From: Blasia pusilla
Lineage: Eukaryota
Reading direction: 5' to 3'
Length of the DNA: 64,000 nt
Assembly (NCBI GenBank): GCA_050084515.1
Contig: CM114271.1
Span: 22,010,001 to 22,074,000, forward strand
The notes beneath the pieces were generated by a model, which was given only the letters and a program-made list of their open reading frames with translations, was not told the DNA's origin and made no database searches. The stretch's first letter is position 1, and each line of letters starts with the position of its first letter. The position numbers and the translations under genes were made by a program. Below, piece after piece: positions 17,085 to 57,900 of the stretch.

Positions 17085-17507
17085 GTGGATGTGACTGTGA
17101 AAGATTCGTCCACCACAATCTTGGACGGTGTGCAAATGATCCAACACTCGCCACATCCGACATCATCGCCGATGCTATCCACAATCACACCTAATGCACA
17201 CTCACCATCATTGGGGCTTGAGTGTCACTTAATAATGGGACAGTCTCCAAAATGTAGGTTGGAGAACATCTTCGGGTAGTTTGCAAGTGTCGAAGAATTC
17301 GCAACATTCCCCAAAACATGGCTGACCTCGGGTCTTGTAAACAAAGTCCTAAACCCGCTGAAGAATTATCGTGACATAGCCATCCTGCCACCACTAAATG
17401 AATTAGACCAACCCTATCCAAATCCTATGCCCCCAACAATGAAATTTCGGCCAAAAATACATGTTGATATCCCCTGATTATAGACATGGGCAATAATTGA
17501 GGATACT
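17085..17507 (-). mobile_element. Older methyltransferase-gypsy copy, left piece (MTase motifs III-VIII)
   Basis: The minus strand reads YPQLL...RGYQH...HLVVAGWLCHDNSSAG...TYILE...AHRPRLWWTNL, homologous to 24820-25230 (+). Confidence 0.85.
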
Positions 17508-18777
17508 TGTGATACCCACAATTTTGTACTTTTGAAGAAATACTTCTTTTTATTCAACGAAGGCTTGTATATATATTATGATTTTGATTATTATATATTA
17601 TTATGGGGAGGAATGAGTAAGATTAAAGTGAATCACGAAGCTCCAAGGACAAGGCAGAGAGATAGAAAATCAAGGATAAAATAACGAAGTCTCAAGACCC
17701 AGCAAGAAGCTTCGGAACAACAACGAAGCCCTGTGAAGCTCTATTAAGCTCTGGCTATGAAGTGCTTCGCTCTATAACGAAGTATAACGAAGCATAACGA
17801 AGCGTAAGAGAAAGAAGTACTTTGCTCTTGAACGAAGCACGAAGAACGAAGCACCTGGAACAAGAACAAAGAATGGAGCGCTTCGTCTTCAGATCAGGAG
17901 AAAGAGCTTCGTCCTCAAGCGAAGCAAAAGAGGTTCAGACTTAGCAGCGAAGCGAAGCTAAGATTGACAGTGATTTCAAGCGACATATAGTTAGAACAGT
18001 TAGAATAGGAAAAGACGCAACCCTTTGTATCAGATTGGTAGTTATGACAGTTTTATTCTGCAGATTCTCAGGGATCATAGGAAAAGCAAAGAGCACCATA
18101 GATCTAGGTAGTTACAAATGTTGAAGAGACACCATCTTCATAAAAAATGCTTCGAATCTTTGGATCACTCCTCCTTCAGAGAGTATTTAAGAAGCATAGA
18201 AGTAGCTATCATTATCATTCTCTTACGAAGTCCTCATGCTGTATGGTCCGAGCAAGGGAGTAGTACCCTCTTGAGCTTGTATACACTTTGAAGCTTTCTC
18301 ATTCTTGATGGAGTAGTAAAGCAATCATTCATTCATTCTGATGTGCGATGCTTATATCTGAATATTCTTTTTGGGTCTGCAGAGTGAAGAGTGAATCAGG
18401 CCAACCTTTCTCATCAATGGAATAATCAACATAAAGTTGTAGGAAATCTGTTTGACAGAGAGTAGCCTGCCGAGACGGATTGAGTTCCGAAAGTAGGAGA
18501 AGCCAGCTTTCATGTTGAGGTCTCTGTGAGGTTTCTTGATATCGAGAGAAATCAGCCTAAGCATGCTGTCAACTCCACTAGAGAGAATTGAGAAAAGAAA
18601 CTTTGGTACTAAGAAAGATCTGAATATATTGATAAGACATTGAATATAAACCATACACATTTAAATACAACTATTACAATAGAATTGTAATTTCGAACTC
18701 TCTTTTCATCAAACAATGATCCTCTTGGGGATTGAACTTAGTAAACGACTGTAAAATAGAAACTCTTGTACATTACA
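17508..18777 (+). repeat. 5' LTR of the Athila-like element
   Basis: Starts TGT right after the TSD. The last 97 bp (18681-18777) match 36521-36618. Many (A)ACGAAG(C) motifs in 17630-17960. Confidence 0.8.
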
Positions 18778-18813: not shown

Positions 18814-21800
18814 TCATAAGATTTTTGGAGAGGGAGAGAGACACATGGGGAATCCAGGAGCGGGGAAGGAAGCCTCGTCTCCTAGAAGACCCAACCATCT
18901 AGTTCTTACGAAAGACCATCTGCTATCTCTAACTATCCCCCTAAGACAATGGATGAAAGAAGATAACAACCGGTTTGCTGCATTGATGCTAGAAAAGATA
19001 GAACAATTAATTAGTATTTTCAAAGAACCAATCGCCGAACGGTGCTTTGCCCATGAACGTCAGTTGTACTTGATGATGACCCGATACTTCTGTTTATGGG
19101 AGGAAAACATGGCAGGAAGATTAAGAGCACCTGCACAGTCTTGTAGGCTTTAGGAATTAGGAATTAGGAAGATCTAATTTCCCTCCATGGATCCCTACCT
19201 TGTGGCAATCGTGGGTGCGGAAGCAAGCTCCCGAATCCCAGAAGGGACTCATGGAAGTCTCCCGGCCCTCTTTGCGAGATCAACGAGTTGATCGATGCAA
19301 TAAGCAACAAGAAGATCACCCGTATTGGAGACCGCAGGGGGTGTCTCCTAGTCTTGTCTTTGCACGAAGCCCAAGAGCAAGAAGAGGGACAGGAATACGC
19401 TCCCCAACACGTCTCTTGCCAGTTTGCAGTCGGACGAAGAGTCAACCTTTGGGGACTCGGGGGACGAGGAGCCGACCAAATCAACTAGATCGGAACCGCT
19501 GCCTCCTCCCTCCCGAGCATCAAGCCCGGGACCCAGCAGTAGACATTTCCCAATGGCCAACACTAGGAAGACGCTGCTAAGATATCCCACGTTTGCAGGG
19601 GGACGGCGAGATGATGTTGACAACTTTGTGCTAGAATTTACCCATGTAGCCAAGGCTAATGGGGAAGGCTCAGAGGAGGATTTGTTGGGAGTCTTTCCTG
19701 GCATGCTTAAGAAGCAAGCAAGCCAATGGTACGAGGGTCTCGGAGCGGACGTCACGGAAACCTGGAAAAAGGTACTGGAGGCCTATCTTCATGAGCTTTG
19801 TGACCTAGAGTTCGAGGACAGGCTTTTGACGAAGCTTCGCGACCTGAAACGTAAAAAGAAGGAAACTCTCAGGGAATACACCCAAAGGTTTCGTAGCCTT
19901 GTGAATAAACTTGAACACACTACTACCTCACAATTGGTAGATTGGTTTGTATCGAGATTGTCCAAAGAAATGGACCGGTATTGTCGGCGAGGCCAATGAG
20001 ATTCCCTGGAAGAAATCATAGCATCTGTAGAGGCGTATGAGGCCTCCTAGAAGTCCCGTAAAACACAAAGACGGCGTCATCAACGACGAGGTTCTTCGCA
20101 AACTAGTTCTTCGTCCGAGGACGAAGCGTCCTCTACAGACACGAAATCCTCTACTGGGAACACCTCGGAATCCTCGAACTCCAAAAAAGATTTAAAATCT
20201 AAGCGGAAAAGAAAAAGCACGCTCCACCACTCTCCCAAGCATTCTCACATCTGAGTAGCCGATACTCCGAGATCTATCGTGGATAGGACGTAGGAGCCAA
20301 CGGACTATCTTGAGTGTAACTTTGTCCCACTGTGTCCGATGAGGTTGAGGATAGGTCCATTTTGTGAGGAACGTCGTTTCTCATAACTTTCATGTCGAGG
20401 TCTTCCACAGCCTGGTGACTTGTTGACCAGGTCACCCGCCCTTGGTAACCTATGCGCGCAGGTTACCAAGGGGAGGACTATTTTTAGGGTAAGAGCCTTT
20501 TGGCTCTTCCCAACCCTATATAAGAGAGGAAGATGGCTTTCCTAAGCCATCTTTCTCATGTTGGGCCGTTGGAGCACCTCCCTTGTATGTGTGTGAGATA
20601 GGACTAGGGTTCTAACGTCCGAATTCCTTGATAGCACAGGGTGGACGAGGCTCGATATGTCGATGTAGATTGAGCCATTTTTACTACTCTTTATTTTTAC
20701 ATGAGAAAGATGTCAGGGGGCTGGTGGGAATTTGTTGTTTGCAGGTAGGCAAGCGAGTTGCCTTGGTCGGGAGCCCGTGGAGACGTTGGTTGGCGTCGTA
20801 TTTGTCATTTTTTCTGTTGGGAAGGCCGTGGGCGGAAGCGCTGTCCGTTTTTTTCAGATTTTGCTGGTGCGGATTGATGGGGGACAGCAAGAGGGTGAAG
20901 CCCAAGTTGTGACAGCAGGTATAGCGTCGTCTAATAGCGGGAATGTCGGGATTTAGCAGGAAGGAGAGTTAGGGCTTGCAGCCACCGGGGGGCTGTCAAG
21001 TAAAGGGCATTTAGGTCAGGGGGCGCGGACGGGTGAACGGCGACGGTCGCGGATGGGAGGACGGCAATGGTCGCGGATGGGAGGATGGCGACGGGCGGCG
21101 ACCGCGCGTGGAGGAGTGCATGGGCAAACGTGGTAGGACCGGATGTGGTGGAGTTGCAGGGGCTGAACGTGGTAGCGCAGTCCGACATGGTATCACAGTT
21201 GGCCGGAGTGACGTGGTAAAGTCGGACGTAGTCGAAAGGGAAGACATGGTTGGGAGCCGACCAGGGTGAGTCAGGTTACATGCCGCGTGTGGGGATGGAC
21301 GGAGAGGTTTGCGCGACAGGGCGTTGCGAGAGTTGACGATGGAGGGGCAGTGCAGATGATGCCGAAAGGTTGTCCACATTTGTTGACGGGAGGATCGACG
21401 TGTTGGTCGAGGAGAGTGTTGTGTTGCGGAGGTTGTCATATCACATGGAGGAGGGCATGTTGACGGAGCAGCAATTGGAGGGCATGATTAGGTTACCCAT
21501 TCAAGTCCCTTTTCCCGCACTTGCCGTGTGTGATTAAGAGTGATGGGTATCCGGTAGTAGCTGGTGCTAGGTGGGTCCAGCGATGGTGACGAGTGTAGAT
21601 TCTTTTCATGTGTAGCATGTTGGTGGATATATGGCGGTTGCCGAGTAGGGGTCGCGTGTATGATCTGAGAGAGTGTCGCTACGTTAGGTGAGTCAGTTGG
21701 GAGGCTCATGGTGAGCCTGAGTGCTGAGTGTGCGTGAGGCCGGGTATGTCATCAGGGGATTGATGTTAGCATAGGTGAGCTAGTGAGGCGTGTGGGAGAC

Positions 21801-22035
21801 TCTCGGTGAGTCTGAGTGCTTGAGCGGGTGAGACAGGGTTTGTCATCACGGCGTTCTTCCAGGGTTCGGAAGAACGGGGTAGTGCGAGCAGTAGTAGTGG
21901 TGTGATATGGAGTGGAGTGAGATACCAAGGGGTTCCCGTGAGGAGCTACCTCAACATCCATCTGTGGTTGGATCGTCATCACTATACATTGGGTCTGGTG
22001 ACGAGCTTGTAGACAGAGACAGTAGTACTTGGCAA

Positions 22036-24300
22036 GAGATGGACGACATGGGCCATCGGGGCATGCGTCGTTTCTCGGGTGCAGTGGGCACCATCGACTT
22101 AGATGATTTTATCCAGGAGTTCGACACGTGGTGCAACTTCCAAGAGATACTGACCCCGACACGATTCAACCCTTTCATGGCATGGAAGGGGTTGTTCTAG
22201 CACTTGGAGGGTCCTCCGATGGATGACTACATGGAGTTTCGATCACTACATTCTGTAGAGATCGATGCTTGGAGGATGTATTGGGCTCCTGGGTATGTGT
22301 CCACTAGTGGTTGCGAGGCATATGATGGGATTGTGAGAGGAGAGAGACCCACACCATCAACCCGGAGACTAGATGGAGAGGAGGGCAGTGAGACAGGCGA
22401 TGTGGCAGAGACCTTTGGTGGTAGAGGGCCACCCAGCTTCAGCCCCACAGTGGAGTTCTTTCGACAGTTGGGGAAGAGCTACCAAGGCGTACGCACCGAC
22501 AAGTTGAAGAGTCTATAGGATTTTCAGCGACGATCGGGTGAGAGTCTGAGAGAGGCATTCACACGCATGAGGAGGCTAATCATTGCTACGTATGGAGTAA
22601 CTGAGGCGCAGTCAGTCCAATATTGGTACGGGGTTTAGGGTTTAGGGTATTGGTACGGTGCTGATTCACACAGCGAAGCCTACATTGAAGGTAGTCTTTG
22701 AGTTTTCTGAGCGTATTGAGCTCAACATGAGTGAGGAGCAGGTAGTGACCGCTGGATTTTCCCGAGAGTCAACGGGTCCACGAGCGACGGTGACCCTACA
22801 GATGCCACTGCGACCACCAACACCACGGGAGCGGGCTAGTGTGCCGAGAGAGCAGGGCGGGTACTGTGAGCCTATGAGGCAACGACCCGTAACTACATAT
22901 GTTGCCCAGCAAGAGTCGATGTGGTCTTGTTGGACGTGTGGAGGGGCCCTTAGGCAGAGAGACTGCCCACAGCATGGGAGAGGACCACCAACACCTCCGT
23001 TTGCTCAAGAGCCACAGAGGATGGCCCCACCACAGCACTAGTGTGACTATTGCCACAGATATGGTCACACTAGGGATAGATGTTTTGACCTTCACCGAGG
23101 GGCACGTCCAGAGGTAGGTCGAGGGACTGGGGGCGGTCGTCTTGGAGGAGGTTGGGGAGTTCTTCTTGGACGTGGTGGTAGAGGACCACCACCAACCAGA
23201 GGAGATGGAGCAGGAGCACCAGAGCCGGCACTTCTCTCACGCATCGATCAGTTGGAGCAGAGGATTGCTGCCATGACCATGATGCAGCTTAGGGAAGGCA
23301 CGGAGCTGCGAGCAGCTGGTGTGACTCTAGCTTCTACCTCTTACCCTGACTCGGGTGAGGATCTCGCCAATATGTGTAGTGCAGCCCAAGTTGAGGAAGC
23401 TGCAGTGGTGACTCGGGGTGTTGCGAGAGGCACAGAGCCAACGAGAGGTGGAGTTGAGATTGACCCACCAGAGGGGACCGATGGGCCGCAAGCCAGGGTT
23501 CCACAGTCATTCACGTTGTCGGAGGCACTACACACACCATCAATGGTGCCTCAAAGACCAGCGGTGCCTACAACTCAACGTCGACCATAGTGTTGGAGGT
23601 GGCCACCAGAGTGAGTCAGACTCCACTATTTTCTGCCATAGAGTGGCGACGTTGGGAGTTGGACCAGTCGAGGTGTTCCGGCTGGCCGCCACGTTGTGTG
23701 AGCGTGGAGAGATGACAGCTTCTTGTTTAGAGGTAGTTGAGGAGGTGGTGGACTTGCCCTCAGAGCCGGTGCTTAGGACGTTCCTGATAGAGTCATGGCA
23801 TGCGGGGGCGCGAAGTTGGTAGATATGCCAGCTCGACCTGCCATAGAGCGAGCAATGGTAACACCTGGAGTAGTGTTACTGGATAACCGAGCTGGAGTAT
23901 TTCGCTTGGTTAGTCCGACGGGGACAGTATACCACCCGCAACGCGTCCTACTTGATTCGGGAGTGCAATCCTTGGTGTTAAGGAAGGCGGCGTGTTTAGC
24001 GTTGGGGTTACGGAAGGCCGACATTGAGCCTTGTCCCTTCCAGATACAAACCTCGATTGGAGGCGTATCACCCACTCACTATATGACTCGACAGGAGATT
24101 GTTGTCAGAGTCCAGCCATAGCATGCGACGGATAGTGCTATGGTGCGCACACGTGCGATTACTACACCAGTTGAGTCGTACGATGTGTTGGTGGGGAGTA
24201 CAGTGTTATATCCCCTAGGATTCATCCTTGACTTTTGGGAGGAGACCATTGCTAATCGGCCAGGGTGGCGGTCAGGTGATGGCCGGATGAGTCAGTTACC
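22036..24300 (+). pseudogene. gag and aspartic protease of the MTase-gypsy element
   Basis: FSGAVGTIDLDDFIQEFDTWC; zinc knuckles CWTCGG..RQRDC and CDYCHRYGHTRDRC; protease RVLLDSG...YDVLVG. Several in-frame TAG stops. Confidence 0.8.
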
Positions 24301-24669
24301 CGTGCAGTTTGCGGGACGAGGTGGTCGATCACGAGGCGAGTCTGTGACCACGTTGGCGATTTTCACAGGTAGTGTTAGCTGGCCAGGAGAGTTGTTGGAG
24401 GGGAACGCACATGCGGAGGATGTCCCAGTAGCGGATAGTCCCACGGAGAGACAGGCCATGGCGGGTGTCTCTTCCCATGTTGGCGAGACCTCTTCACCAT
24501 TGTGGGATACGACTCGAGAGCTACAGAGGAGTGCTGACGACTTGGTGAGGCAGGCGTGGAGTCATGCTTTTATCCCGGAGCAGCGAGAGTCACGTGGCGA
24601 TCGGGCTCTTGGAGTGGAGATGTTGACTCCACTGGATACCACAACCGTTTTGTGGCAGAGCCCAGAGGA

Positions 24670-25625
24670 GGGTGTTAGCGTGTTAGATCTCTTGGGAGGG
24701 ATTAGCACCGGATTGGCTGCAGTATTGCAGGCGGGCATACGAGTGCATCAGTACCTTTATGTGGAGAGAGATGAGACCGCGCGGCGAGTATCATTACGTC
24801 ACGTGGCGAGATTGGTCCAGAGGTATCCTGGGCTGTTTTTGGTATCTGCAGTACGGGGATATCAGCATACACTACCCGCCAAAATCTCTTTGGTGGGGCC
24901 GCAGGATCTGGATAGAGTTGGCACCATTCATTTGGTGATTGCTGGATGGTCATTTTAGGGTCATTCATCAGCTGGCCGAGGATTTGGATTGCAGGATCCG
25001 ACGTCAGGGATGTTTTGGGAGATGATGCGAGTAGAACGACACTTGCAGGAGAGTCAGACATGTTCTCCAACGTACATCTTGGAGAACGTGTCGTTGTTGG
25101 GAGACACTCGTGCACGTGTGATGACGAGTGTGTATAAGGTGAGGTCCTGGTTGGGACCTGCTGTGTTATTAGATGCGGCGAGAGTTGGATCACGTGCCCA
25201 TCGTCCACGATTGTGGTGTACGAACCTGATACCAACAGAGGTACTGAGTCGAGCATACGATGGAGTCCAGAGAGAACCACATCTCATAGTGGATGCTATT
25301 TTTGGGCTTAGGGCGTCAATCTCAGGTGGTGACACGGGATGATAGACCCCTGTTGGCCATGGCCAATAGGGTGGGGGAGTTGAGGGCAGCCTTACCTACG
25401 TTGGTGAGCTTCCCACCATCCCATGCCTTTTGTCAGGGAGGGCCAGGCATGATTTGGGATGAGGTGACCGGAGCATTGGAGGAGCCTACAGCAAATGAGC
25501 GCGAGCGCGCCATGGGTTTCGCTACCGATACTACGACGGTGCCAGGGATGACAGAGGCATCCCGAAGACAGGTGTTGGGGCAGGCAATGGACCTCAACTG
25601 TCTCACATGGATAGTCAACCTAGGT
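24670..25625 (+). pseudogene. DNMT3-like C5-cytosine DNA methyltransferase catalytic domain within pol
   Basis: Motif I VLDLLGGISTG, II YLYVERD, IV IAGW(SF*)GHSSAG, VI YILENV, VIII DAARVGSRAHRPRLW, IX NERERAMGF, X RRQVLGQAM, in canonical order. One stop and one frameshift. Confidence 0.88.
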
Positions 25626-25892
25626 ATGGCTGAGCAGAGACGGATGCGAGTGTCATCCATGCCGTCACGTCCACGAGTTGGACCATAGCCTACAGGGTCT
25701 GTACAAGCATTGGTTGGGGGCGAGATGAGGAGAGATAGGCACCCATGGACTTCTTGGGACGTCGTTCGAGCAAAGAGTGTGAAGGCGGCTAGAGTAGCAC
25801 ATATTCATTTTTTGGATGTGGAGCATGGTGGAGAAGGTCAAAGTGAAGTGGCTGTTGCAGAGGTGGCTAGGGTTGCTACATAGCAACCAAAG

Positions 25893-28800
25893 ATGAAGGT
25901 TTTGTCCTCTCCGAGTGAGGTCACGATGGAGACTTGGGAGCCTGTGATAGGTCTCAAGTTGATAGGAGGAGAGCGACGGCGAGTTCATAGGTTTCTGAGA
26001 GGGCATGTCAGTTGTTTTGCCTTCAATATGAGAGACTTGGGTACGCTGAAGGGTCCCGGGATACGGATTGAGTTGGCTAGTGATACCCTGATCTTTCGTC
26101 GACCCTACAGATATTTTGATCTGGAGCGAGCCTTGATTCAGAGTAGGAGTCATGACTTGTTGGAGGTAGGACTTGTGGAGTTATCACATGGGGAGTATGC
26201 ATCTGCCACAGTCATGCCGGCGAAGAAGGATAGGTATGGCAATTGGACGGATAGGCGGATGTGTGGAGATTACCGTCCTATCAACCGACAGACGAGGTCA
26301 GATCGATACGGCATGCCTACTCCTGAGGAGATCTTTGATGCGGTAGGGCATGCAAAGATCTTCAGTACTTTAGATCTCTGTGTTGGCTATCATCAGCTTC
26401 CTATCTGGTTGGAGGACAGGGAGAAGACAACATTCTGGGGGATAGATCGGTTCCGGAGAGATTGCTTGTATTAGTGGCGGTTCTTACCATTTGGGTTGAA
26501 GAACGCGCCTGCAGAGTTTCACAGAGTGATGGATAGGATTCAGGCTGGCTTGGATTTTGTACGATGTTACATAGATGATATTCTTATCTTCAGTTCCATG
26601 GTTGAGGAGCATGAGCGACACTTGGAGGAGGTGTTTTGGCGATTGCAGTTACATGGACTGAAGTAACATCCAGGCAAGTGCAAATTCTTTCAGGAGCAGA
26701 TTGAGTACTTGGGACACACCATATACCCGAGTGGGTTAGGCGTTCAGCAGACAAAGGTAGAGGCTATTGCACAGATTCCACGCCCTACAGATGTGAGTCG
26801 AGTCCGAGCATTTCTTGGACTGGCAAACTTCTATCGACGGTATGTCAAGGGTTTTAGTGCGATCGCAAAGTCTTTGACCTTGTTGATGAGACTTGATCAG
26901 GTTTGGTTGTGGGGAGATGATCAGGAGCGAGCATTTCAGGAGCTCAAGGACTGGTTGACATCCTCACCCATTTTACAGAGACCGTTTAGGGATCGCCCAT
27001 TCCAGTTACATACGGATTGGAGCATGTTGGGTCTAGGAGCAGTGCTTACTCAGAGGGATGATGAGGAGAGGGAGTTCGTTGTGGCTTACGCGAGCCGATC
27101 AAACAACATTGCAGAGGCGAAGTACAACTCCTACGAGGGAGAGTGTTTGGCTGCAGTGTGCGCCGAGGCACATTTCAGGTGCTATTTATTCAACAACCCT
27201 TTCACACTTATCACTGATCATCAGCCGTTGAGGTGGTTGATGGAGTCCGACAAGCTTACGGAAAAGCTTGCCAGGTGGGCTCTATTACTACATGAGTATG
27301 AGTTTGAGGTGGTTCATAGGCCAAGTCGGCTGAACCAGGATGCGGATGGGTTGAGTCGTAACCGATGTCCAAGTAGAGAGACGACCTTGGAGCTCGATGG
27401 CACGGAGAGAGTGATGAGGAGATGGTGCCCGGTTGGCATGCATCTGCCTATCTTTGTTGGTTGACTATGGCAGGTCAGCCACAGGTGATGACTCCTGTGG
27501 TAGGGTTGGATGATGAGTCTTTCGATCCGGAGGTTAGTGAGGAGGCGACAGTTGGTCGTGATATCCATGACGATGTGGAGGTTGTGGAGTTCTTGCGCAC
27601 AGGCGTCATAGCGAGTACAGTGAGTGCTAGGGAGCGGGATCGGATCCTACAGAGAGCCAAGAGGTTCACGTGGGAGGGGACTCACATTTTGCGGGTATGG
27701 GGAGATGGTAGGATATGAGTGGTACCTCATCCTTTCCAACGAGCACGTGTAGTGCGACATGCCCATGAGGAGTTGGGACATTTTGGAGTAAAGCGAACTT
27801 ACAGCTTACTCCAGGTTCAGTATTGGTGGCGCGGCATACATACTGGGGTACAGCAATTTGTGGCTAGATGTATGGTATGTGATAGAGTGCAAGCATCCTT
27901 CAATGCTCCCACTCCACAGTTACATCCTTTGCCGATTATGGGTTTAGGTTATCGGTGGAGTTTAAACTTTGCGGGACCTTTGCCATTGACGAGGCGTCAT
28001 CATATGTACGTGTTGGTCATGGTGGAGCATTTTTCCAAGTGGATAGAGTTGGTGGCACTACCAGACAACGCGAGTGAGGGAACAGCTTATGCATTTCTAG
28101 ATCGTGTGCTTAGTCACTTTGGCGCACCGGCGGAGGTGTTGACTAACCAGGGTACCGAGTTCAGGGGAGAGTTTCAGGCCTTCGTGATCAGGCGCTGATA
28201 GATCACCGCACCACGTCCACAAATCATCTTAAGACGGATGGGTTGGCGGAGAGAATGGTACAGACGGTGAAGAGAGGATTGCGCAAGTATGGCTTGCAGC
28301 GGGGACAGTTGAGGGAGTGGGACCTACACTTGCCATGGTTGGCTATAGGTTATCGCTTTAGTCGGCAAGCATCCTTGGCGTCATTTTCACTGTACTTTTT
28401 GCTCTTTGGGAGAGAGCGAGATTTAACTGCAGCGATTCGACTTGACATGGCGGAGGTGTTAGATCTTGATGATCGAGATGTGTGGGTACAACCATGTTCT
28501 CAGAGGGCGGAGGTTTTTCGTAGAGTTATGCATATGGCCTTTGAGAACTTAGCTATTGCCCAGCATAGAGATACATTAAGGTACGCTACCATTCGTGAAG
28601 GAGGTTATCGTCCAGGGATTAGGAGGTTTTATCTTGGAGATTACGTATATTTATAGTAGGTGGCACCCACGACGCTAGATGTCACTGCAGGGCGCACGAT
28701 CATACGTGTGCGCGAGGTATTACCGACCGGAGTCCTCATGTTGGAGAGACGGGATGGTATGGTTTGGAAGGATCATGTGCACAATTGTGCGCCATGTCAT

Positions 28801-28998
28801 CTTCCGAACGTAGATGGGACAGTGGATCCGAGCTTGGCAGTGGTACCTGCAGGCTTGAGGTGTATGTTGTGCGGATCTGCGAGGGGTGCAGCCACCATAT
28901 TGGTATGTGATGGTTGTTCTCGAGGGTGGCATATGTCATGTCTGACCCCCCCTCTTGATGTGGTTCCCACGGGACGATGGATGTGTCCGAGATGTGTA
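25893..28998 (+). pseudogene. RT, RNase H, integrase and C-terminal PHD finger of the MTase-gypsy element
   Basis: RMCGDYRPIN, PFGLKNAP, CYIDDILIFS; LHTDWSMLGLGAVL; HAHEELGH...CMVC, SLNFAGP, LTNQGTEF, GLAERMVQTVK; C4HC3 PHD at 28861-28998. Confidence 0.9.
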
Positions 28999-29813
28999 TA
29001 GGGTAGTAGGTCATGTCAGAGAGATGTGATATTTTCTATCTAGAGTTGGGGGGATCCAATTGCCAACTAGGGGGGCGGTTTTGTGATCTCCATGTATATG
29101 TATGAGTTGATTTTTGTACATGTATGGATCGACCCGTGTGTGGGGAAGATCAATGTTATGTGGTGTAGATGTGACTAGCGATGTATGTTGTGTAGCAATA
29201 TGTATGCGCACGACAGCTCTCACATCTGAGTAGCCTATAGGCTGAGATCTATTGTGGATAGGGTGTAGGAGCCAGCGGACTATCTTGAGTGTAACTTTGT
29301 CCCACTGTGTCGGATGAGGTTGAGGATAGGTCCATTGTGCCACGAACGTTGTTTCTCATAACTTTAATGTTGAGGTCTTCCACAGCCGGGTGACTTGTTG
29401 ACCAGGTCTCCCGCCCCTAGTAACCTGTGCACGCACGTTACCAAGGGGAGGGCTATTTTTAGGGGAAGAGCCTTTTGGCTCTTCCCAACCCTATATAAGA
29501 GAGGAAGATGGCTTTCTTAAGCCATCTTTCTCATGTTGGGCAGTTGGAGCACCTCCCTTGTATGTGTGTGAGATAGGACTAGGATGCTAACGTCCGGATT
29601 CCTTGACAGCACAGGGTGGACGAGACTCGATATGTCGATGTAGATTGAGGAGTGGAGTTTTAGGCCGGGTGTGCCGTTGTGGGATCTCCATGTATATGTA
29701 TGAGTTGATTTTTGTACATGTGTGGATCGACCCATGTGTGGGGAAGATCGGTGTTATGTGGTGTAGATGTGACCAGCGATGTATGTTGTGTAGCGATATG
29801 TATGCGCACGACA

Positions 29814-32800
29814 ACATCGAAGGAAAACCATACCAGCAAAGCACCTTCCCCAGCGGTCGGAAAGTCCAGTAAAGGGGACAGCGAGGAAGGCAGGCAAGTC
29901 TGCCATTGAAGAGCTTAGTAAACAAATGGTGAAATTGAAGGTACATCTGGCGGCCCAGAAGGATCCCAGAAGACGACCAGGTCTGATGAGGCCCAACATC
30001 TGGTGCAATATCTGCTACGGAACCCAAGGGCATACTGCTCAAGAATGTCATACTCAGAGAGATTTACATTGGATCCAAGAAGATCCAACTACACAAGAAG
30101 GGTGGTATGAACCCGAACAGTGAGAAGGGTGTTATGCAATCCAAGCTATGCCATCGCCTAATCCCGGACAAAGTTGGATCACCCGATATGTGCCTCCGGA
30201 ATACGGGGATTAGAGACCCCTAAGACAGATTATGGGCGCGGCAGCCTTCACGCCACCCATAAAAAGGAATTGTTGTTATAAGTGCGGAGCAGCTGACCAT
30301 TGGGCTAATAATTGCCCAAATCCAAAGCGGCCAGTAGGACTCAATCCATTGTGCAGAAATTGCAAAAAGGGCGGGCACACTGCAGTGGAATGCCCGGAGC
30401 CCAAGGTCCCACGGTTGTTGGTAAAGTATGTCAATACCCCAGCAGCCCAACCAGAGTCCAAGAATGACGTAAATGTGCAACTCGTCCGAGTGGAAGAGTT
30501 AGGGTCCCCCAGGACAAGGCGAGTGAGTCACTATCAGGGAGGAGGACTGCGACAGAACGGCGGCCGAAGAATCATCAAACTGGCCCAAGGAGCTCCAAAA
30601 CACCGTTCTTACTGTCACCACGAGGTCCAAGAACCAGACCGCTGGGACCCCAAGGCAAGGAAAGGTGCTTCGTCTTCGCGCGAAGCTAAAGACCCCAAGA
30701 CCAAAAGTGTCGACGACTTCCGCGGCGGGAAGGCCATCCTAAAAGGCGATGTTGACCCGGCCTTCAATCAAAGTCACCCTAAGTACTTCCATCAAGATAT
30801 CGAGGACCAGGTTTGGGCTCAAGTGCGCCAGGACCAAGGGCCAGAAGGGAGGCAGACCACAGAGAAGGCGAGAACCAGAATGATTCCGGCAGTACAAGCC
30901 ATCGTGACGTCACCTCTGGTCTTGGAAGCCTATGACTTACTCATGGACTTGACATAAACCCTGGCCAATATAACCCTGCTGCAATTATTAATGGATAACC
31001 CTGTGTACGGCAAAATTTTGCAGCAGTGGAAGATAAGCCGCAGAAAACCCAAGAAGTCTGCAAAGAATCTACCAGTAGTGGATCTGTTCTGTATCAAAGT
31101 GGAAGATTTGGGAGCCCCAGAGGTAGAAGTGGAGATTGAGGGACACACCATTAAGAAGGTCCCCATTGACTTGGGAAGTGGAATTAACATAATGACGGAA
31201 CAGACGGCCCAAGCACTAGGATACACGGAGTACGAGCCCACCGACAAGTATCTACGGTTCGTGGATCAGTCCCGGAAGCGACCCCTCGGACAACTCACTC
31301 AGATCCTGACCATGCTCGGCGAAGTGCTATTTCTGTTGGACTACTTAGTGTTGCAGCCCTTAACAACCACTGACTATCCTTTGCTTATTGGAAGAACCTG
31401 GCTCTACGGTGCGAGAGTGACTACGGACTGGAAAAGGAGATGATTCACGTTTCAAGCTCCGGACCAGATCTCAAAGCGACTCATCAAGTTGTCGTGGAAA
31501 TCACGACCACCCCAAGGAGAAACACCACCAATTGATGAAGGCTATACGTCAGATCAAGAGCGGACTATAGCTACGGAGTCCTCGTATAATGTGTATTATT
31601 TAGAATGTTACGAAGAGGAAGAGAAGCTGGGTCATAGCACATTCCACTTCACAGAAAATATGGTTCAAGAAAAAGACTACATAGAGGTCTTAATTACATG
31701 TCATAAGTCTCTACGCCTCTTGGCGGATTTGTCTCCAACCGAACTCATTAAGTACAAAAGGTCATTGTTTGAGTATTTGGATGTGTTTGCGTACTCCATG
31801 GATGAAATGACATGCATTCCAGCATGGTATGGTGAACACCGAATTGATCTAAAAGAAGGTGCGGTCTCGATACGGATGAGGCAATATCGTCTCGACCCAA
31901 AGTACTCGTTGTTAGTCAAGGACGAAATCGACCAGCGTCTCGAAGCAGGAATAATTTATCCTGTGTTAAGTAGCGAGTGGGTGTCGCCCACTGCAATTGT
32001 ACCCAAAAAACAAACGGGAAAAATCAGAGTGTGCCAGGATTATCGGAAATTGAATTCGACCACCTTAAAGGACCATCACCCCCTACCTTTCACTGACAGT
32101 ATTTTGGACAAAGTCGCCGGCCACGAGTGTTATACCTTCTTGGATGGATACTCGGGTTATAACCAGGTATCCATAGGAGAAAAAGATCGGCCCCTCACAA
32201 CTTTCACGACGGACTGGGGAACTTTCGTGTATCGTGTGATGCCCTTTGGGTTGTGCAATGCGCCGGCCACCTTCCAATGGTTGATGATCTCCATCTTCCA
32301 AGAGTATCTGCGGAAGTTTGTTGAAATTTTCCTGGACGACTTTTGTATCTTCAGTATCGAATCCAAACACTTGGAAAAATTAGAATAAACCCTTGCTCGT
32401 TGTCGCGAAGTGCATTTGTCCGTCCATCCGGAAAAATCGTATATTGCCATGAAACAAGGGATTTTGTTGGGGCACAGAGTGTCGGCTCAAGGAATTGAAG
32501 TTGACAAGGCCAAGGTGGATATTATTGTCATATTAGAACCACCCACAAATCTTCGAGAATTGAGAGGATTCTTGGGACACGTCGGATATTACCAACGGTT
32601 TATTAGGGTTTATGCCGTAAAAGCAGGAGCCCTTACCGCGTTACTTAAAAAAACTACCGAATGGGAGTGGACTCCACCCTGCCAAGCGGCATTTGACGCC
32701 TTAAAGGGAGCACTACAAAAGGCTCCTGTACTTCGGTCCCCTAAGTGGACCAAACCCTTCCACTTATATGTGGACACATCCTCGTTTGCCATTGGAGTGG

Positions 32801-36346: not shown

Positions 36347-36618
36347 TTACATAATCTCGGTGACATTACAATGTACATAAGCATTAGAATGCCATCAAGA
36401 CACATTGTAATGGGTAAGAGGTTGGTTATCACCTCTTCCTCCGAAATCTTAGATTATTCTTTCCTCTTGTTCTATATTTTTTATCTCCATCTAACCTGGT
36501 TGATATGAGGCTGTCTCCTCAGAAATTGTAATTTCAAACTCTCTTTTCATCAAACAATGATCCACTTGGGGATCGAACTTAGTAAACGACTGTAAAATAG
36601 AAACTCTTGTACACTACA

Positions 36619-37560
36619 ATACTTATGGACTAGTCGTGAGATATTGTGTAATGAGAGTCTATGTACGGTCTTATCCCTCTCAACATAAAAGTATATATGT
36701 TCTCGTACTCCGACCTACAACACTCCGACCAAAGTAGTACTAATCCCTCCAAAGAGATCTAGTATCTGTACACCCTCCTCAGGATACTCCCACACAATTG
36801 GTGTGGTGTCCAAGGATGCCAACATCTTCACTGCTAGGGCATGCGGTAACTTTGTCGCATCTCACTTTGAAGCATAGGCTCGTTTCCACGCCTGCCCCAT
36901 GAGCTTGTTTGCACTCCTCTGTATATCAATGCTCATTCCCCATAGAGCAAAAAAAAAGGATCGCCAATAGATGTGGTCATGCTTGTCATCGCATGAGCAT
37001 CGCATGCCATTTCTCAAGACTATCCTCTACAAGAATATCCTCTACATGGGCGTTCCCATGCAATGAATTTCCATGCCAACATAATCTGCCACAATAATTG
37101 CAACAGTTGTGGTCGACTTTGGGAGTGAATCACCAAGTCTCCCTGCACACCGCACGAGTAGCTGATTGGCTCATCCCTCACTTGATTTCTAACCTGGTTG
37201 ATATGAGGCTGTCTCCTCCCAAAAGCAAGTGTAAATCCTAGGGGATACAATGAGGTATTCCCTACCAAAACATCGCAGGACTCGGTCGGCATCACCATTG
37301 CTTGGATCCACACCATTGCACTATTAGTAGGATGATAGGGTCGTGAGGCATGTACTGTGTTGGGGATGTGCCTCCTAGTGGAGTCTGAATCTGAGACGGA
37401 CATGGAGAGATCTCACGTTTCCGCAATCCCATCACTACATATGTCGCCTTCCTCCACATAAGGGATTGAGCTCCTAAATCAAGAAGAACACGCTGCAAGC
37501 GATACATGACTCAAGACGGATCAACCAAATGGAAAACTCCATCTTGGTTGTCAAGACAAA
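36619..37560 (-). mobile_element. Older methyltransferase-gypsy copy, right piece (protease to MTase motif II)
   Basis: The minus strand reads LDNQDGVFHLV...RVLLDLGAQSL...SCDVLVG...YPLGF...ISRLVHKY and joins the left piece in frame across the TSD. Confidence 0.85.
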
Positions 37561-39949
37561 AAATCTTGAGGAGACGATAACTTCATGAAATGTTTTTAAT
37601 AATAAAAGAAACTATCAATCAACAAGTTGATCTAGTTGTGTATCACGATGGCTTTCATCTATTGGATTATGTAGTAGGTCTCGATCCTAAATGTTTTGAC
37701 TTTATGTGTCTCACTTTGCATACAAAAGACTCCATGACCAATAAATCAACATAAATCAAAGAGTATGAATTAATTACTCTATTCTCCACCGAGTTCATCC
37801 GTCCGTCGAAGAGGCCGCACTCATCGAGAGGAGTGTTTTTTTAACCCTATTCTCTCATTGCAAATTTCATTCTCCATGGTGGTGTATGTGTGTGAGGGCC
37901 GTTTCCCACCAGTTATGCTTGTTTAGCAGTTTTCCACATTGAGGCGTGCCACATTTAAAGAGTAGTTACAGAGTTGTTAATTGAAGAAGACTAACTACTT
38001 AAGGGATGAAAAAAACCTCCTTTATTAGTATAAATCCTAATGAAGGACCTATTATGTCCTTGCAAAATCAAATCTATAGTGTACAATTTTAAAACCGCTC
38101 CAATTAAAAATTCTTTTCAATAAATTTGAGCTTAAGTTGGGGAAAGAAATTGGTTGTTCCTTTGTGAGGAGGACAAACTGCTGACACGTGAAAGGATGAA
38201 TGAAGTGGTTGTTGATATGTGGAGGAAATGAAGGTGTGAGTTCATCTCACAATGGATTTTTCTGATGCGATTATATGCGAGGGAATGCACGATCACTAGT
38301 TTGATCTATAATTATCATGTGGAGAGAGATAAATCCAATAAGATTTGCATCCTTGAAAATTGATACAATGGAAGCCTTGCATATTTCTCATATCTTGTCA
38401 TTTATATGTGAGAGGCTTATAGAAAACCCTCAAAATGAGATGATTCCACTGTTCCTTGTTAAAAAAAAATGCCATGATGTTAGTATAGAGTGAATTTACA
38501 AGTGGAGCCCGAATAGTCCCAAAGGTGGTTTGAGGTGGAAAGCATGCAATTTTCTTCCATTTTCTCTGTCTAAGGGATTGGAAGAAAATATTGATAGATA
38601 CATCCAAAAAAACTATATTGTAATATAAAGAAAGAAAAAATTAATGGGGAAGTTACTATTTGTGGGAGTTATGTGAAAAAAAAGTGAATCAATATCAATA
38701 TTATTATTGGAGAGTGCCCATAAGATTCCGGAGCTCATTTCCTATTGACATTGCCATTTTTTAACCAATCGGATCATGACACGTGTGCTTAGATAATTTA
38801 GAGTGACTTTGGAGAATAATGAAGTTAGGGGTCAATTAGAGGTCTACGAGGATCAGTAATGATGGGTGTTTCAAATTACTCATCATTAGATACCTACCGC
38901 GGGTCTTTCAAATGGAATACCCATTCGCAAAGTTACTTCTTTGGGCATCCCGATGGTTAGTGCTTGGAGTTCTTCTTTTTGAGCTTGCTTTCCTAATGAC
39001 GGATTTTATAGAAAATCCACATAATGTACCCAAATGAATGGTTAGGACACAATTGAGGACACAATAATGAAATTAGGACACACTTTTTTTCATTATTTTG
39101 TAAAAAAAGTGATGCATAAGAGGGCATCCTTGCTTGCTAGATCCTGATTTTTTCGGATACATGTTGTGTCCTATAAATCCCTTCCTCAAATGATTCCATT
39201 CCAGGTCAGATTTAACCCAACCCCGGGTTTATGATGGAACTCAAAGCCGGTCAACGATTCAGGTGCTCGTCGGAGCTCGGTACTACCCGTAAAGAACAAG
39301 CTTCCGTCACAACGTATTCTGGCACGACCAGAAGTGAATACTACTACGGTGTACAACAAAAACCGGTCGCTTCTGAAAGACCCGGTTTTGAACGTGGAAT
39401 GAAACCCTGGAGTAGCCGGCCCGGGCGCTGTAGACTACCAAAGAGCAAAGTTCTTCGTAGAGGACCGGCCACTGCCGGTTGCGCGGTCTCGTGAGTCCAG
39501 TCGTGCGTTATGGCAGAACGAGGCGAGAATTGTTCCTCGTCTGCGTCGGTGCGGTGCAGCCCATCGCAGTGCGCAGGTGAGGTGAGGTGAGGGTAGGAGA
39601 GAAGGGACGGGAGGGGAGAGGACGGATTCGAGATTTGGAATACTGTGGATGTGGCGTGACTTCTAATGCAAGTTTGCTGCGTTGCAGCCGAAGTTGTCAT
39701 GCAGGGGAGGAGTGTCTGATGTGAGGATTGATGTGCATATTTCTGATGTGTTGGACGCAATTCTGAGAGAAGGGATGGATCGGAGGGGAAGATGAAGCGA
39801 TTTGGATGACCTTTGCAGTTCGGTTTGGATGATTCTGACGGGGAGGACAGCGGTGTCTTCAGGACTGAGAATTACGATATTTGGTCGTTGTTCTGATCGC
39901 TAGTGAAGAGGAATTGGCCGGGAAGGCAGACTACTGACGATCTGCAAGG

Positions 39950-54006: not shown

Positions 54007-54484
54007 TGTCGTGCGCATACACACCGCTACAAAATCCACATTGCTGGTCACATCTAAACACCACACAACACTGATCTTCCCTACACACGGGTCGATCCAC
54101 CCATAAACGAAATACGCTCACCCATATACATCGAGACTAAACAACCAAATCAAAATAAAATCGGTTGACCTGACCTTCAAACTCCACTCATGAATCTACA
54201 TCGGCATATCTAGTCATATCCACGCTCTAACCTCCTCATTCACGCACACCAAAAGTACTCCAAAGACTCCCTTTTTTTTTAATAGCCATAGGCTAACCTT
54301 ATGCTAGCAAGTTGTTGCACTTCCTTGAGGCTTAATGCCAACCCAAGCTGCCCTCGCCGAAGTCTCGCAACCCTGAGAGTTGCCGCACTTCTTGAATACT
54401 CAGACCTGGCTTGGTCTGCCGACTTTTGAGTTGAGCGCATCTCGACGACGGCCCTACCTCGATCCAACGATGAAGAACGTCACA
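54007..54484 (-). repeat. Solo terminal repeat related to the MTase-gypsy A-x-B unit
   Basis: The reverse complement of 54007-54220 matches 29630-29813 (gatgtagatt..gagtggagttt...ggatcgacccgtgtgt.gggaagatc...tatgcgcacgaca). The boundary at 54484 is tentative. Confidence 0.7.
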
Positions 54485-54951
54485 CATGTGCTTACTGCCA
54501 CGTGGATGCCTTCACCTGTCTCTTGAGGCACTCATATGAGCAGTCGTTTCGTCAAGTGCGGCCTACGCTGCACAGAGCTCTAGTGGTCTCCGTGAGCGTA
54601 GACGCATTTCTACCGTTGAAGCTGGTTCTTTATCATTTGTAACACCCACATCAGTAGAGGAAGGCCCAAACGTTAGAGAAACCCTAACTCGGGAATTGTG
54701 AGGTGTGAAACGAGAGGGAGATATTTCCCGTCGTCCTCTGTCGTGGGGTTATGGGGGTTTTGCAACTCCGCTGTCCCCCGACCGAGATTCAGTAAATTGA
54801 GGGAGGCGCCGATCGATAAAACTCGACGCAAGTGTGGGATCGGCAAGTCGGGATCGCTGGACATGTTGAGCTTTTTGTCAGGAGCTCAGTAAGGAGCGGA
54901 ATGATGAAAATTTGAGGTCGGTACAGAGGAATTCGAGGCACGCGAGACGTA

Positions 54952-57900
54952 ATGTGGAGGGTAGCGCTGCGCCAGCTGACGCGGAATCAGCAAGCGGGCG
55001 CAGGGGAGAGGATTGGAGTGGGATTGCAGGACACTTGTGGAGGGTGGAAATATCGGTGTGTGAGGCAAACGAGCAGTTCCGGTGCTGCTGCAGAGCCAGC
55101 AGCGGACGTCTGTAAGGCGGATTTAGCGGAAGTTCGATGGGAGTTTCAAAGTATTGGATTTTCTTCTTCAGCTACATCATTCAGTACACCAGCATTATAT
55201 TGCGACAAGTTGAACCCCTTAGAAGCGAGTGTGACAGCATTGGATACAGCTCTGCACAGCGTCGTGCACCTGCCATTACTTGCCAACCAGATATGGTGGA
55301 TGCAATGGTTGTCGGATTCTAAATCAGATGGATCTGATTACGGGCAGGGGCTCAGATCTGGTATCTCATCGGTGTCTCGTCACCGTCCTGGTGCCAAAAA
55401 CTTCGCTAGTGCGGCCGCATTGGAGCAGGAAGACGAGGACGAGGAAGAGCAGGCAAGTAGAGAGAACAGAATTGTAGAAAACGTTGCCTCAAAAATTGGC
55501 CGACATAAGCGTAAAGGACAGTACTCGAAGTTGTACGATCGTCAGATGAAAATAGAGTCGCTGGCATGGGAAAGCGCAGCTGCAGAGTACCGGGAACTTA
55601 TGTTGGAAATGTGCAAGAAGAATTTGGCACCCAATCTTCCTTTCGTCCAGTCCTTAGTACTAGGGTGGTTCGAGCCACTGAAGAATGCAATAAAATTTGA
55701 GCAGGAGGCCATAGAAAACTTAGAATTTAGGGAGCACAGGGCTGGTTATGGTCCTTTTCTATGTCAGCTTCCTGCGGACATGCTTGCGGTCATCACTATG
55801 CATAAGATCATGGGAATGTTGATGAGCGACTTGTCCGCTGGTGGTTGTGTGAAAGTTGTGTCGGCTGCCATAGCCATCGGTGAAGCTGTGGAACAGGAGG
55901 TGAGTTCTTAATTCATAACTCAATGTTCTGCTAGCTCCCTTGTACTTTCGTGAGCTCTAGCTGGCCTGGAATTTTTTCGGAGGAGGAAGATTTTGTGCTC
56001 TGCGTTTCTGTTCGATTATATGCGTCAAAAGTTTAAACTTCAAGGGCTTGGCAAGCTCTTGACAAGGCACGGCACAGACTAATAGTGCATATGGAGTTAG
56101 CGACACGTTTAACATCACAAGTGGCTGTACTTATGGGTGGGCGGGTGGGATTCTTGTATTTCTGGCCTAAATTCTAAGGCTGGTGTGATCACAGGTTGGA
56201 ATATACAAGCTTCTCCGAAAAGCTACCAAAAAGAAGAAAGGGAAGAGTGATCCGAAGGACTTGGATGTGGCAAATCAAGCTGCTGCCAGCCCTGCCAAGC
56301 CAAATGTGCAGCTGAAGGAGAAAGTGAAGAAGCTACTGAAGCAACAGAAACTCCGGATTGCTGGCAGTCTTGTTAGACTTGCCAATGGCGATGAACCATG
56401 GGGAGGCGAAATTAGATTAAAGGTGTGATACGTGATTGGTGATCAGGAAATACTTAAGTCTTTTCGACTTGACCTGAGTTGCAAAGTTTTTGGCATATTA
56501 ATGCTACGAGCTTGAATGCATGCAAGTCTGGTACAATGCCTGGCAATTACGTGGCCTATGACCCACTAAATTCTAATACTTTTTTTGCTTACTGTCCAGC
56601 TTGGGTGTCGCCTGATTGAAATCATGATTGAAGTGGCTTTGCTACAAACCCCAGCCAGTCAGACTGGAGAAGATATGGGAGAACTCCGGCCAGCATTCAA
56701 GCACACTATGAGAGTCTTCCCAGGCCAGAAGTAGGTAGATTCTGCATAGCTGTCTGTCAGGCAATGTTGAACAAGTAACAGGGATATTTATTGCCGTGAG
56801 GCCTTGATTCGGTTGTGTTCCTTCGTATTAGCAGCATTTCCATCAGATCATAAATACTTGGAGTTCTCTTGCAATGCAGTGCGGCCCATATGTTTGGAGT
56901 TGTTGAATGCGATCCTCTAGTGATGCAAGAACTTGACAAGTCGGTAAGTACCTCCTTTATTTTGATCCCAGCATGATCGAATGGTCAAAATCAAGAAGAT
57001 CTGGAAGCTAAGAGCGCAAATGAAAGTAGTAGAATTCATGCAATGAAGTGAGGCCGCAAAATTCATCTTGAAGGTTTATTTCTTAACTATCACACTGCCG
57101 CCTTCAATTAGACAGTGCCGCAGGAATGAAGTCACCTGCTTTATTATCCAAGAAAGATCAATCTTGTTTCCAAGGATGCCCTAATTCCGTTTCCATATCA
57201 ATTGGATCAGTCGAAAGGAAGTCTAAATGTTAAGAAAATGTCTCGTAGAGATTCAATGTGCCACATGAAGGTCATCTTTTGTGGGTGGGAATTGGTCTGC
57301 TTCTACCTCTTGAACCTGTCACCGACTTGACAATCTGCCATTTTGACGATTGCAGGTGAGGCATATGGTCATGCCCTACATGCCGATGTTGGTTAGACCG
57401 CGCAAATGGACAGGGTAATAATCAAAAGCATTCATGGATTGTTAGGGATTGTGAGATTGCAGTGATGCATTCTGGGCCTCAACTATCTTGTTGAAAGTGA
57501 ATACATGTCAAGTACTCTCTGTCAGCCAACAACCTAGCCTAAACCGTGAGATCCAATGTCTAGAGAAGGCTGTTGCTCATTTCAGAAATGTTGCGGACCT
57601 TTTCTAGATTTGCGACTGGTGGTTACTTGATTCTGCCGGCAACTGTGATGCGGATACATGGAGATAAGCAACAACGGGATGCTATACAGAAGTCCTCTCG
57701 GATGAGCACTCAAAATGTGTTTCATGTAAGTAGTGCTACTGTGAGGAAACCGCATCAACTACAAGATTTCAGTTTACTAAAGGTCCTCTGGACTGGAATT
57801 CATAGAGTTTTTTGACATGGTGCTGCCCTTACTGTGATTTGCAGAGTCGTTAGGATGTAGTTAAAGACCTGCTGGAGTGTTGAAATTTGTTAATATCTAG

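Follow-up and report, generated by a model that had tools for sequence, protein, structure and literature searches.

RESULTS

A Ty3/gypsy element with a cytosine methyltransferase domain in Pol

We analyzed a stretch of 64,000 nucleotides of Blasia pusilla DNA (GenBank assembly GCA_050084515.1, contig CM114271.1, positions 22,010,001 to 22,074,000 of the forward strand); this whole stretch is called the window, and all positions below are counted within it. A dead Ty3/gypsy-type retrotransposon occupies positions 20243-29812. The one gag-pol frame of this copy holds, in order, gag, protease (PR), a DNMT3-like C5 cytosine methyltransferase (MTase), reverse transcriptase (RT), RNase H, integrase (IN), and a PHD finger. 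We consider it very probable that this is a copy of a bryophyte family that carries a selected DNMT3-like MTase in Pol and is a sister of the algal family KnitGypsy-Dnmt3. Self-comparison of the window showed that the repeats of the element are laid out as A1, coding region, B1, A2, and B2. The features of the element are as follows.

20238..20242, + strand: 5' copy of the target-site duplication, AGCAT; 4/5 bases match AACAT at 29813-29817
20243..20674, + strand: terminal repeat A1; 432 bases, ungapped, 92.6% identity to A2, Kimura two-parameter distance (K2P) 0.078
20675..22038, + strand: leader from A1 to gag; contains a 24-bp tandem repeat in 3 copies at 21024-21094
22039..23590, + strand: gag with two zinc knuckles, decayed; tblastn with Marchantia P0004 residues 1-494 gave 57% and 38% identity and one change of frame
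23777..24121, + strand: aspartic protease; weak PF13650 match (E 0.046), aligns with the protease region of PF13650-positive relatives
24122..24670, + strand: linker between protease and MTase; in the frame common to both neighbors, less conserved
24671..25625, + strand: DNMT3-like C5 cytosine MTase domain, decayed; assigned from motifs, profile, and the fold of a relative
25884..27461, + strand: RT and RNase H with two in-frame stops; 66.6% identity to Marchantia P0010
27719..28653, + strand: integrase (H2C2 zinc domain, core, and C-terminal part) with one frameshift; PF17921 6.8e-16, rve 6.5e-10
28660..28998, + strand: PHD finger at the C terminus of the integrase frame, preceded by two TAG stops; PF00628 2.6e-11
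29075..29215, + strand: internal repeat B1; 141 bases, 93.6% identity to B2, K2P 0.067
29218..29649, + strand: repeat A2, which pairs with A1
29673..29812, + strand: terminal repeat B2 and end of the element; the self-alignment reaches 29813, and the end is uncertain by 1-2 bases
29813..29817, + strand: 3' copy of the target-site duplication, AACAT; one mismatch to AGCAT

The assignment to Ty3/gypsy follows from the Pol order PR-RT-RNase H-IN and from the RVT_1 and rve matches. In the read-through translation P0455, Pfam placed RVT_1 at approximately 26253-26723 (E 1.7e-26), together with RT_RNaseH (3.4e-31) and RT_RNaseH_2 (5.4e-29). Two long terminal direct repeats and a 5-bp duplication with one mismatch mark it as a long terminal repeat (LTR) element. 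The additional B1/B2 pair is unusual for Ty3/gypsy LTR elements. Since the K2P values of the A and B pairs are nearly equal, the distances suggest that both pairs were identical when the element inserted. The zinc knuckles of gag were seen in the open reading frame (ORF) translations of the window, and scanning two gag pieces gave no Pfam match for gag. Across the whole element, the tblastn path passes through six frame changes and about a dozen in-frame stops. We found no Pfam match for a chromodomain at the C terminus of the integrase; PF00628 is there instead, and the element thus lacks the mark of a chromovirus.

The MTase domain of the window copy is a relic

We located the conserved motifs of the MTase in the read-through translation P0001, in which an X was placed at one in-frame TAG and at one frameshift.

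24680-24739, + strand: motif I, VLDLLGGISTGLAAVLQAGI
24932-24976, + strand: motif IV, LVIAGWSF*GHSSAG
25070-25093, + strand: motif VI, TYILENVS
25187-25228, + strand: motif VIII, GSRAHRPRLWCTNL
25497-25520, + strand: motif IX, ERERAMGF
25563-25598, + strand: motif X, RRQVLGQAMDLN

These motifs are colinear in the ordinary order I-IV-VI-VIII-IX-X. An annotation made earlier from the letters of the window (the first-pass annotation) had described C5-MTase motifs in canonical order on one strand, continuous with the protease region and just upstream of RT, and we located motifs I, IV, VI, VIII, IX, and X in just this arrangement. One frame spans the protease (23777-24121) and the MTase up to 25339; it is interrupted by stops at 24119-24121 and 24956-24958, and a +1 frameshift of the MTase lies near 25298-25310.

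The same annotation had reported that the catalytic PCQ is decayed in this copy and had derived PCQ as the consensus of two copies. At 24950-24958 we indeed read TCA TTT TAG (S-F-stop), and the catalytic Pro-Cys is absent from the window copy. The corresponding site of an older copy in the window, described below, is CTA TGT CAC at 17379-17371, reading AGWLCHDNSSAG (L-C-H), and relatives bear PCQ out as the family state. The window copy is a relic of a member of the C5-MTase family and not a working member. Its decayed peptide nevertheless has DNMT3A as its best solved relative (E 4e-4). This match and homologues with E values down to 1.8e-144 led us to reject the idea that the motifs arose by chance.

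The MTase is a conserved part of a large element family

We found 32 longer homologues of the window peptide, with E values down to 1.8e-144, and PF00145 is recorded for 27/32. They include 15 proteins of Marchantia polymorpha and one each of Calypogeia fissa, Sphagnum fallax, and Closterium. Another 145 homologues are of similar length, among them proteins of Riccia sorocarpa, Sphagnum troendelagicum, and S. jensenii, and relatives also occur in the chlorophyte Haematococcus lacustris. When a representative library (50% identity clusters) was searched with a profile of the domain, 514 clusters matched at E <= 1e-30 and the 150th match was still at 5e-70. Thus, judged from these matches, the element family is very large. 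One further relative, P0220, carries the label DNA cytosine methyltransferase and comes from a metagenome bin assigned to Candidatus Obscuribacterales; it falls within the eukaryotic retrotransposon clade, is 45% identical to the window peptide, and is probably a misbinned eukaryotic contig.

The catalytic site is largely kept in these relatives. Motif IV reads PCQ in 27 of the 32 longer homologues and ECQ in 1, and the segment is deleted in 4. Among 215 proteins matching the domain, 124 retain the AGW anchor, and the anchored sequences read PCQ (98), ECQ (18), PYQ (3), or are singletons (5, one of which is the window). The S-adenosylmethionine (SAM)-binding motif I, the catalytic PCQ, ENV, and the arginines of motif VIII are conserved across very divergent members. 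In several relatives, protease, RT, RNase H, or integrase is fused with the MTase in the same protein, and P0087 and P0185 hold the whole order DNMT-RT-RNase H-IN-PHD with no stop. Identity between the window and Marchantia is 55-56% for protease and MTase, 67% for RT and RNase H, and 75% for integrase-PHD.

The window itself holds parts of an older copy of the family, which we found by tblastn with the young copy and with Marchantia proteins.

36619..37576, - strand: protease, linker, and N-terminal part of the MTase (motif I ILDLFGGIST)
17101..17574, - strand: motifs IV-VIII of the MTase (AGWLCH, ILETV, GSFAHRPRLWWTNL); ends after motif VIII

The junction between protease and MTase is the same in the older copy as in the young one. 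Over 17101..17574, the two MTases are approximately 61% identical in protein and 71% in DNA. In the older copy, we detected neither gag nor RT nor integrase, and our estimates of the ratio of nonsynonymous to synonymous substitution (Ka/Ks) are therefore confined to protease and MTase. By the Nei-Gojobori method, Ka/Ks between the young and the old copy was approximately 0.23 for motifs IV-VIII (proportion of nonsynonymous differences [pN] 0.20-0.24, of synonymous differences [pS] 0.56-0.60), 0.14 for the protease, and 0.35 for the linker and motifs I-III; synonymous sites between the two copies are near saturation, so these ratios are rough. They indicate purifying selection on the MTase domain. 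The first-pass annotation had allowed that the segment might be missing from other members of the family or might evolve neutrally. The MTase is found in many members, and its catalytic core has a Ka/Ks of approximately 0.23. The MTase, METHYLTRANSFERASE, is an inherited, selected part of the element family, not a stray host fragment.

The older copy also records the order of insertion at this locus. The MTase element interrupts the gag ORF of a different gypsy element, which runs over 19352-20242 and resumes at 29818; removing the MTase element and one copy of the duplication rejoins the halves of the interrupted gag in frame. The older family copy breaks off at 36619, where the nested insertions cut it; the interrupted element and the MTase element together split its MTase, giving three levels of nesting. 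The interrupted element (19352-20242 and 29818 to approximately 36618) is a Ty3/gypsy element without MTase, with a gag carrying a CCHC knuckle, PR, RT, RNase H, and IN; it is approximately 30-35% identical to the MTase element in RT and IN. A 95-base direct repeat at 18683-18777 and 36524-36618 (95.8% identity) may mark its ends. At 54007-54226 on the - strand, we observed 73-80% identity to the A end plus the B repeat of the MTase element, probably the terminal remnant of a third copy of the family.

The domain is closest to DNMT3 in profile and fold

We compared a profile of the family with solved structures. The best matches were DNMT3A (64.8 bits, 3.1e-17), DNMT3C (58.8 bits), and DNMT3B (54 bits). 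Other classes scored lower: 30.7 bits for M.HaeIII, 28.2 for tobacco DRM, 24.4 for M.HhaI, and 17 for Arabidopsis DRM2. No DNMT1 or chromomethylase (CMT) among the solved structures matched the profile at E <= 0.01. The alignment of the profile to DNMT3A is colinear from motif I through motif X. Thus the domain is closer to DNMT3 than to the other MTase classes, in a comparison that covers solved structures.

The fold agreed with the profile. We used the AlphaFold model of an intact relative, P0191, which is 65% identical to the window peptide by BLASTP and scores 42.7 bits against PF00145; the model has a predicted local distance difference test (pLDDT) value of 85.1 and a predicted template modeling (pTM) score of 0.87. 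In a Foldseek search with this model, every match listed, to rank 50, was DNMT3A, 3B, or 3C, with a best E of 1.5e-17 and a target template modeling (TM) score of approximately 0.8 for chains of the DNMT3 catalytic domain. These domain matches, the profile, and the fold agree with the first-pass description of a Ty3/gypsy element with a nonpermuted DNMT3-like MTase between PR and RT.

The setting of the domain differs from that of a host enzyme. No Pfam match to PWWP or ADD was found next to the catalytic domain; the protease lies upstream, and RT lies downstream. The sole reader domain in Pol is the PHD finger after the integrase. Among the sequence matches, there was no host plant DNMT3 or DRM; the word searches need shared 5-mers, and the best 150 representatives all belong to the element family.

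The integrase carries a PHD finger and links the family to a larger group

The PHD finger lies in the same frame as the C-terminal part of the integrase. We found 156 proteins that match the integrase-PHD region of the window, with PF00628 recorded in 118 of the 120 listed. They include Mp_7g09570 of Marchantia (75% identity), KFL_015960010 of Klebsormidium nitens (48%), and six proteins of Haematococcus lacustris. The best solved matches to the integrase of P0071, an intact relative, are the integrases of Ty3 (first) and PFV. For the PHD finger, the best solved relatives are those of MLL3, CHD4, WSTF, KDM5A/B, ATXR5, BHC80, UHRF1, and AIRE, many of which read unmodified H3K4 or H3R2.

A second architecture emerged from these relatives. 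In many integrase-PHD relatives, the MTase lies between RNase H and integrase, and the order RT-RNase H-DNMT-IN-PHD is found in P0067, P0111, P0125, P0126, and P0166 of Haematococcus lacustris. In a tree of 96 MTase domains, a clade of 23 with full support unites the window with Marchantia, Calypogeia, and Sphagnum, and the sequences of the second architecture group in a separate, supported clade of 35. P0030 of Sphagnum fallax stands among the liverwort sequences in this tree, not outside them, which could reflect horizontal transfer or poor resolution. In an unrooted FastTree tree built from 158 integrase-PHD regions, the window groups with Marchantia, KFL_015960010, P0087, and P0185 in a clade of 29 that has full support; 22 proteins of this clade have no MTase between RT and integrase. 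The family thus appears, from these trees, to belong to a far larger group of gypsy elements with integrase-PHD fusions in the green lineage. That the MTase is paired with a PHD finger and can occupy either of two places in Pol suggests an old, modular kit.

Related copies are transcribed

We placed raw RNA reads from three runs of an organism (organism A) that holds parts of the window DNA and is likely the source of the window; reads were placed at >= 88% likeness. The run index lists no RNA run for this stretch, and the evidence of expression consists only of these placed raw reads. In all three runs, the reads cover 30/30 bins of the internal region of the element. First mates map to the minus strand in 30, 30, and 29 of the 30 bins, which corresponds to sense RNA if the usual design of stranded libraries is assumed. 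Reads at least 99% alike to the window copy numbered 2/885, 14/909, and 9/912. Because almost no reads reach this likeness, the RNA stems from related copies and not from the window copy. At position 24950, 49/49 RNA reads and nearly all of the DNA contig depth have C, where the window copy has T. DNA contigs and RNA reads of related copies also cover the junctions.

Neighboring features

Three further features lie elsewhere in the window. A young Ty1/copia element occupies 57765-63480, with terminal repeats at 57765-58600 and 62649-63480 (approximately 99.6% identity) and ORFs that match copia gag, integrase, and RVT_2. At 54916-55908 on the + strand lies the N-terminal domain of a phage-type (organellar) RNA polymerase (RPOL_N, 5.8e-29), and a Vps41-type RING finger lies at 658-1197 on the - strand (1.3e-11). 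By their domain matches, the latter two are likely exons of host genes beside the transposon nest.

DISCUSSION

Methylation usually silences transposons, and cytosine methyltransferases borne by transposons are therefore a paradox. The family described here appears, from its sequences, to encode a catalytically competent DNMT3-type domain that selection has kept as a part of Pol, together with a PHD finger on the integrase. The anatomy given by the first-pass annotation held; however, it made no mention of the split repeats, of the triple nesting, or of the PHD finger that follows the integrase.

This kind of element is already known, and our finding extends it to land plants (bryophytes) and is not new in kind. 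According to the main text and figure legends of de Mendoza 2018 (PMC5890265), KnitGypsy-Dnmt3 of Klebsormidium nitens has a nonrearranged DNMT3-like domain in the gypsy Pol frame, with a Ka/Ks of < 0.2, and its repeats are arranged as in DIRS elements, A-coding-B-A-B. It thus resembles the window element in the placement of a DNMT3-like domain in the gypsy Pol frame, in its repeats, and in purifying selection on the domain. It differs in its host: Klebsormidium is an alga, whereas the hosts of the window family are land plants (liverworts and Sphagnum). The acquisition is placed there in the lineage of K. nitens, and the main text of that paper (PMC5890265) never uses the words Marchantia, liverwort, or PHD. 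Later papers, in the parts available to us, name only streptophyte gypsy or copia elements with DNMT3 and cite the 2018 work. The first-pass annotation knew of no well-described land-plant family, and this agrees with the literature searched: we found no land-plant description of the family there, where the supplements of de Mendoza 2018 and of a 2025 MBE paper may list more species, bryophytes included. The Marchantia gene identifiers of the relatives likewise appear in no paper of the literature searched.

Other systems share parts of this design. SymbioDIRS-Dnmt3 of Symbiodinium, as described in the same main text and legends (PMC5890265), resembles the window family in having a DNMT3-like domain in Pol, A-coding-B-A-B repeats, and two domain orders. 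However, it is a DIRS element with a tyrosine recombinase, whereas in the window element RT and RNase H are of the gypsy type, and the integrase is a DDE enzyme that carries a PHD finger. EpiLTRs, as far as the available part of the preprint describes them, are likewise LTR elements that join DNA methyltransferase and chromatin-reader domains (bioRxiv 10.64898/2026.05.21.726589); their enzymes are an adenine methylase and a DNMT4-like cytosine methylase, and their reader is a chromodomain, whereas the window element combines a single DNMT3-like enzyme with a PHD finger. It is known in general that retrotransposons can bear PHD fingers, and gypsy-type Pol proteins with a chromatin reader at the end of the integrase are known as well; in the account available in PMC6673714 this reader is a chromodomain, whereas in the window element it is a PHD finger paired with an MTase. 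Among host enzymes, mammalian DNMT3A, 3B, and 3C give the best match in sequence and fold, with colinear motifs and a short region between motifs VIII and IX. The solved DNMT3 chains are only approximately 20% identical, however, and the domain of the window family is embedded in a retrotransposon polyprotein with its PHD finger at the far end of Pol. Plant DRM is a distant relative of the same catalytic fold, with the weak matches of its solved chains given above; its motif order is permuted, whereas that of the window family is ordinary.

Several observations weigh against our interpretation. The window copy can make no enzyme, and activity cannot be read from it. The first-pass annotation had proposed PF00145 as a check, and the outcome was divided: the window copy stayed below the gathering threshold of 22 bits (13.7 bits for a piece and 12.1 bits for the read-through), but all 8 of the 8 intact relatives scanned reached it, seven with 35-46 bits and P0031 barely (22.8). 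The ends of the element start with TCTCAC and finish with GCACGAC and not with the canonical TG...CA. We found no primer-binding site near A1 with the initiator-Met motif, the only motif searched, which gave 2 matches where 5.5 were expected. The putative DNMT3 assignment comes from comparison with solved structures of animals and plants rather than from a rooted tree. The Ka/Ks ratios are blurred by the near saturation described above. The strand of the RNA was deduced from the usual library design, and the best DNA run of organism A contained only 0.34 of the sampled words. The proposed link to Klebsormidium draws on a figure legend and on the integrase-PHD region: KFL_015960010, a candidate protein of the published KnitGypsy-Dnmt3, shares 48% identity with the window and groups with it in one clade, and a Klebsormidium MTase is absent among the 32 longer homologues and the 120 listed of the 145 of similar length. 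Finally, when the Klebsormidium domain was expressed in yeast, no methylation was detected, a result that its authors called inconclusive in the text available to us (PMC5890265).

One alternative concerns the origin of the MTase. The bryophyte and Klebsormidium families could have gained their MTases independently, or the element could have moved horizontally between lineages, instead of being inherited vertically from a single streptophyte ancestor. Repeated acquisition of DNMTs by retrotransposons is described in the accounts available in PMC5890265 and bioRxiv 10.64898/2026.05.21.726589, and both the position of Sphagnum fallax among the liverworts in the MTase tree and the two positions of the MTase in Pol would fit such a history. 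However, the domain order, the A-coding-B-A-B repeats, and the fusion of integrase and PHD finger are common to the bryophyte and the Klebsormidium elements, as far as the published legends and our matches describe the latter. In addition, the integrase-PHD clade with full support that holds the window includes the Klebsormidium protein, and the two MTase positions form separate supported clades, as expected from old splits rather than from fresh captures. We regard independent gain or transfer as unlikely.

A second alternative concerns what the domain does. It could have been retained without being a de novo DNA methylase, either methylating the RNA of the element or serving only as a module of Pol that binds DNA or chromatin. 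The yeast result is in keeping with this, as is the suggestion of RNA methylation made for another class of retrotransposons in the available text of PMC5890265, and 18/124 anchored sequences have ECQ in place of PCQ. But motif I for SAM binding, PCQ, ENV, and the arginines of motif VIII are conserved in very divergent members, a catalytic cysteine is needless for a purely binding role, and the closest solved proteins are the DNA enzymes DNMT3A/B/C, not the tRNA enzyme DNMT2. We judge this alternative to be somewhat less probable again than independent gain.

It is very improbable that the bryophyte gene models are domesticated host MTase genes and the window copy a host pseudogene in transposon debris. 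Databases do list the models as hypothetical proteins and one as a DNA (cytosine-5)-methyltransferase. Yet gag, protease, RT, RNase H, or integrase stands in frame in the models, there are many per genome and several are truncated, and the window copy is bounded by repeats and a target duplication; a domesticated host gene is thereby effectively excluded. That the window copy captured a fragment of a host DNMT3 in a single event, or that the MTase stretch is an assembly chimera, we reject with near certainty: the weak Pfam score of the window copy is the only support for this, against the same protease-MTase junction in the much older second copy, an architecture common to dozens of named and hundreds of further relatives, junctions covered by DNA contigs and RNA reads of related copies, and Ka/Ks ratios well below 1.

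Our favored reading is a selected, DNMT3-like MTase carried in Pol by a bryophyte gypsy family. How it might act can be outlined from the domain content. In intact relatives, the enzyme would be translated within Pol and would travel with RT and integrase. It would then add 5-methylcytosine to the new cDNA or to the DNA at the insertion site, as the first-pass annotation had also suggested; the methylation of retrotranscribed cDNA is also what was proposed for such enzymes in the text available from de Mendoza 2018 (PMC5890265). The PHD finger of the integrase would read the unmodified tail of histone H3 and steer insertion into chromatin without H3K4 methylation. Taken as a whole, this specific mechanism, a Pol-borne MTase acting on cDNA or insertion site combined with targeting by the PHD finger, is a tentative proposal that we hold to be possible but not probable. 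A broader reading is that an old and diverse gypsy lineage of green algae and bryophytes carries a writer-reader kit, a DNMT3-like enzyme and a PHD finger for the H3 tail, that it is transcribed in bryophytes including relatives in Marchantia, and that it marks its own cDNA or landing site and so chooses its own chromatin fate. Such a kit would mirror the catalytic and ADD parts of host DNMT3. This broader reading is more doubtful than the mechanism itself, and we offer it as speculation.

The finding bears on annotation as well as on biology. The liverwort and Sphagnum models called methyltransferases or hypothetical proteins are fragments of retrotransposon Pol. If the lineage is abundant and transcribed in bryophytes, the question of what these enzymes do becomes testable in a land plant with good genetics and methylome tools, Marchantia polymorpha, for which numerous copies are annotated. 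If the elements do mark themselves with such a kit, part of the methylation of bryophyte transposons could be written by the transposons.

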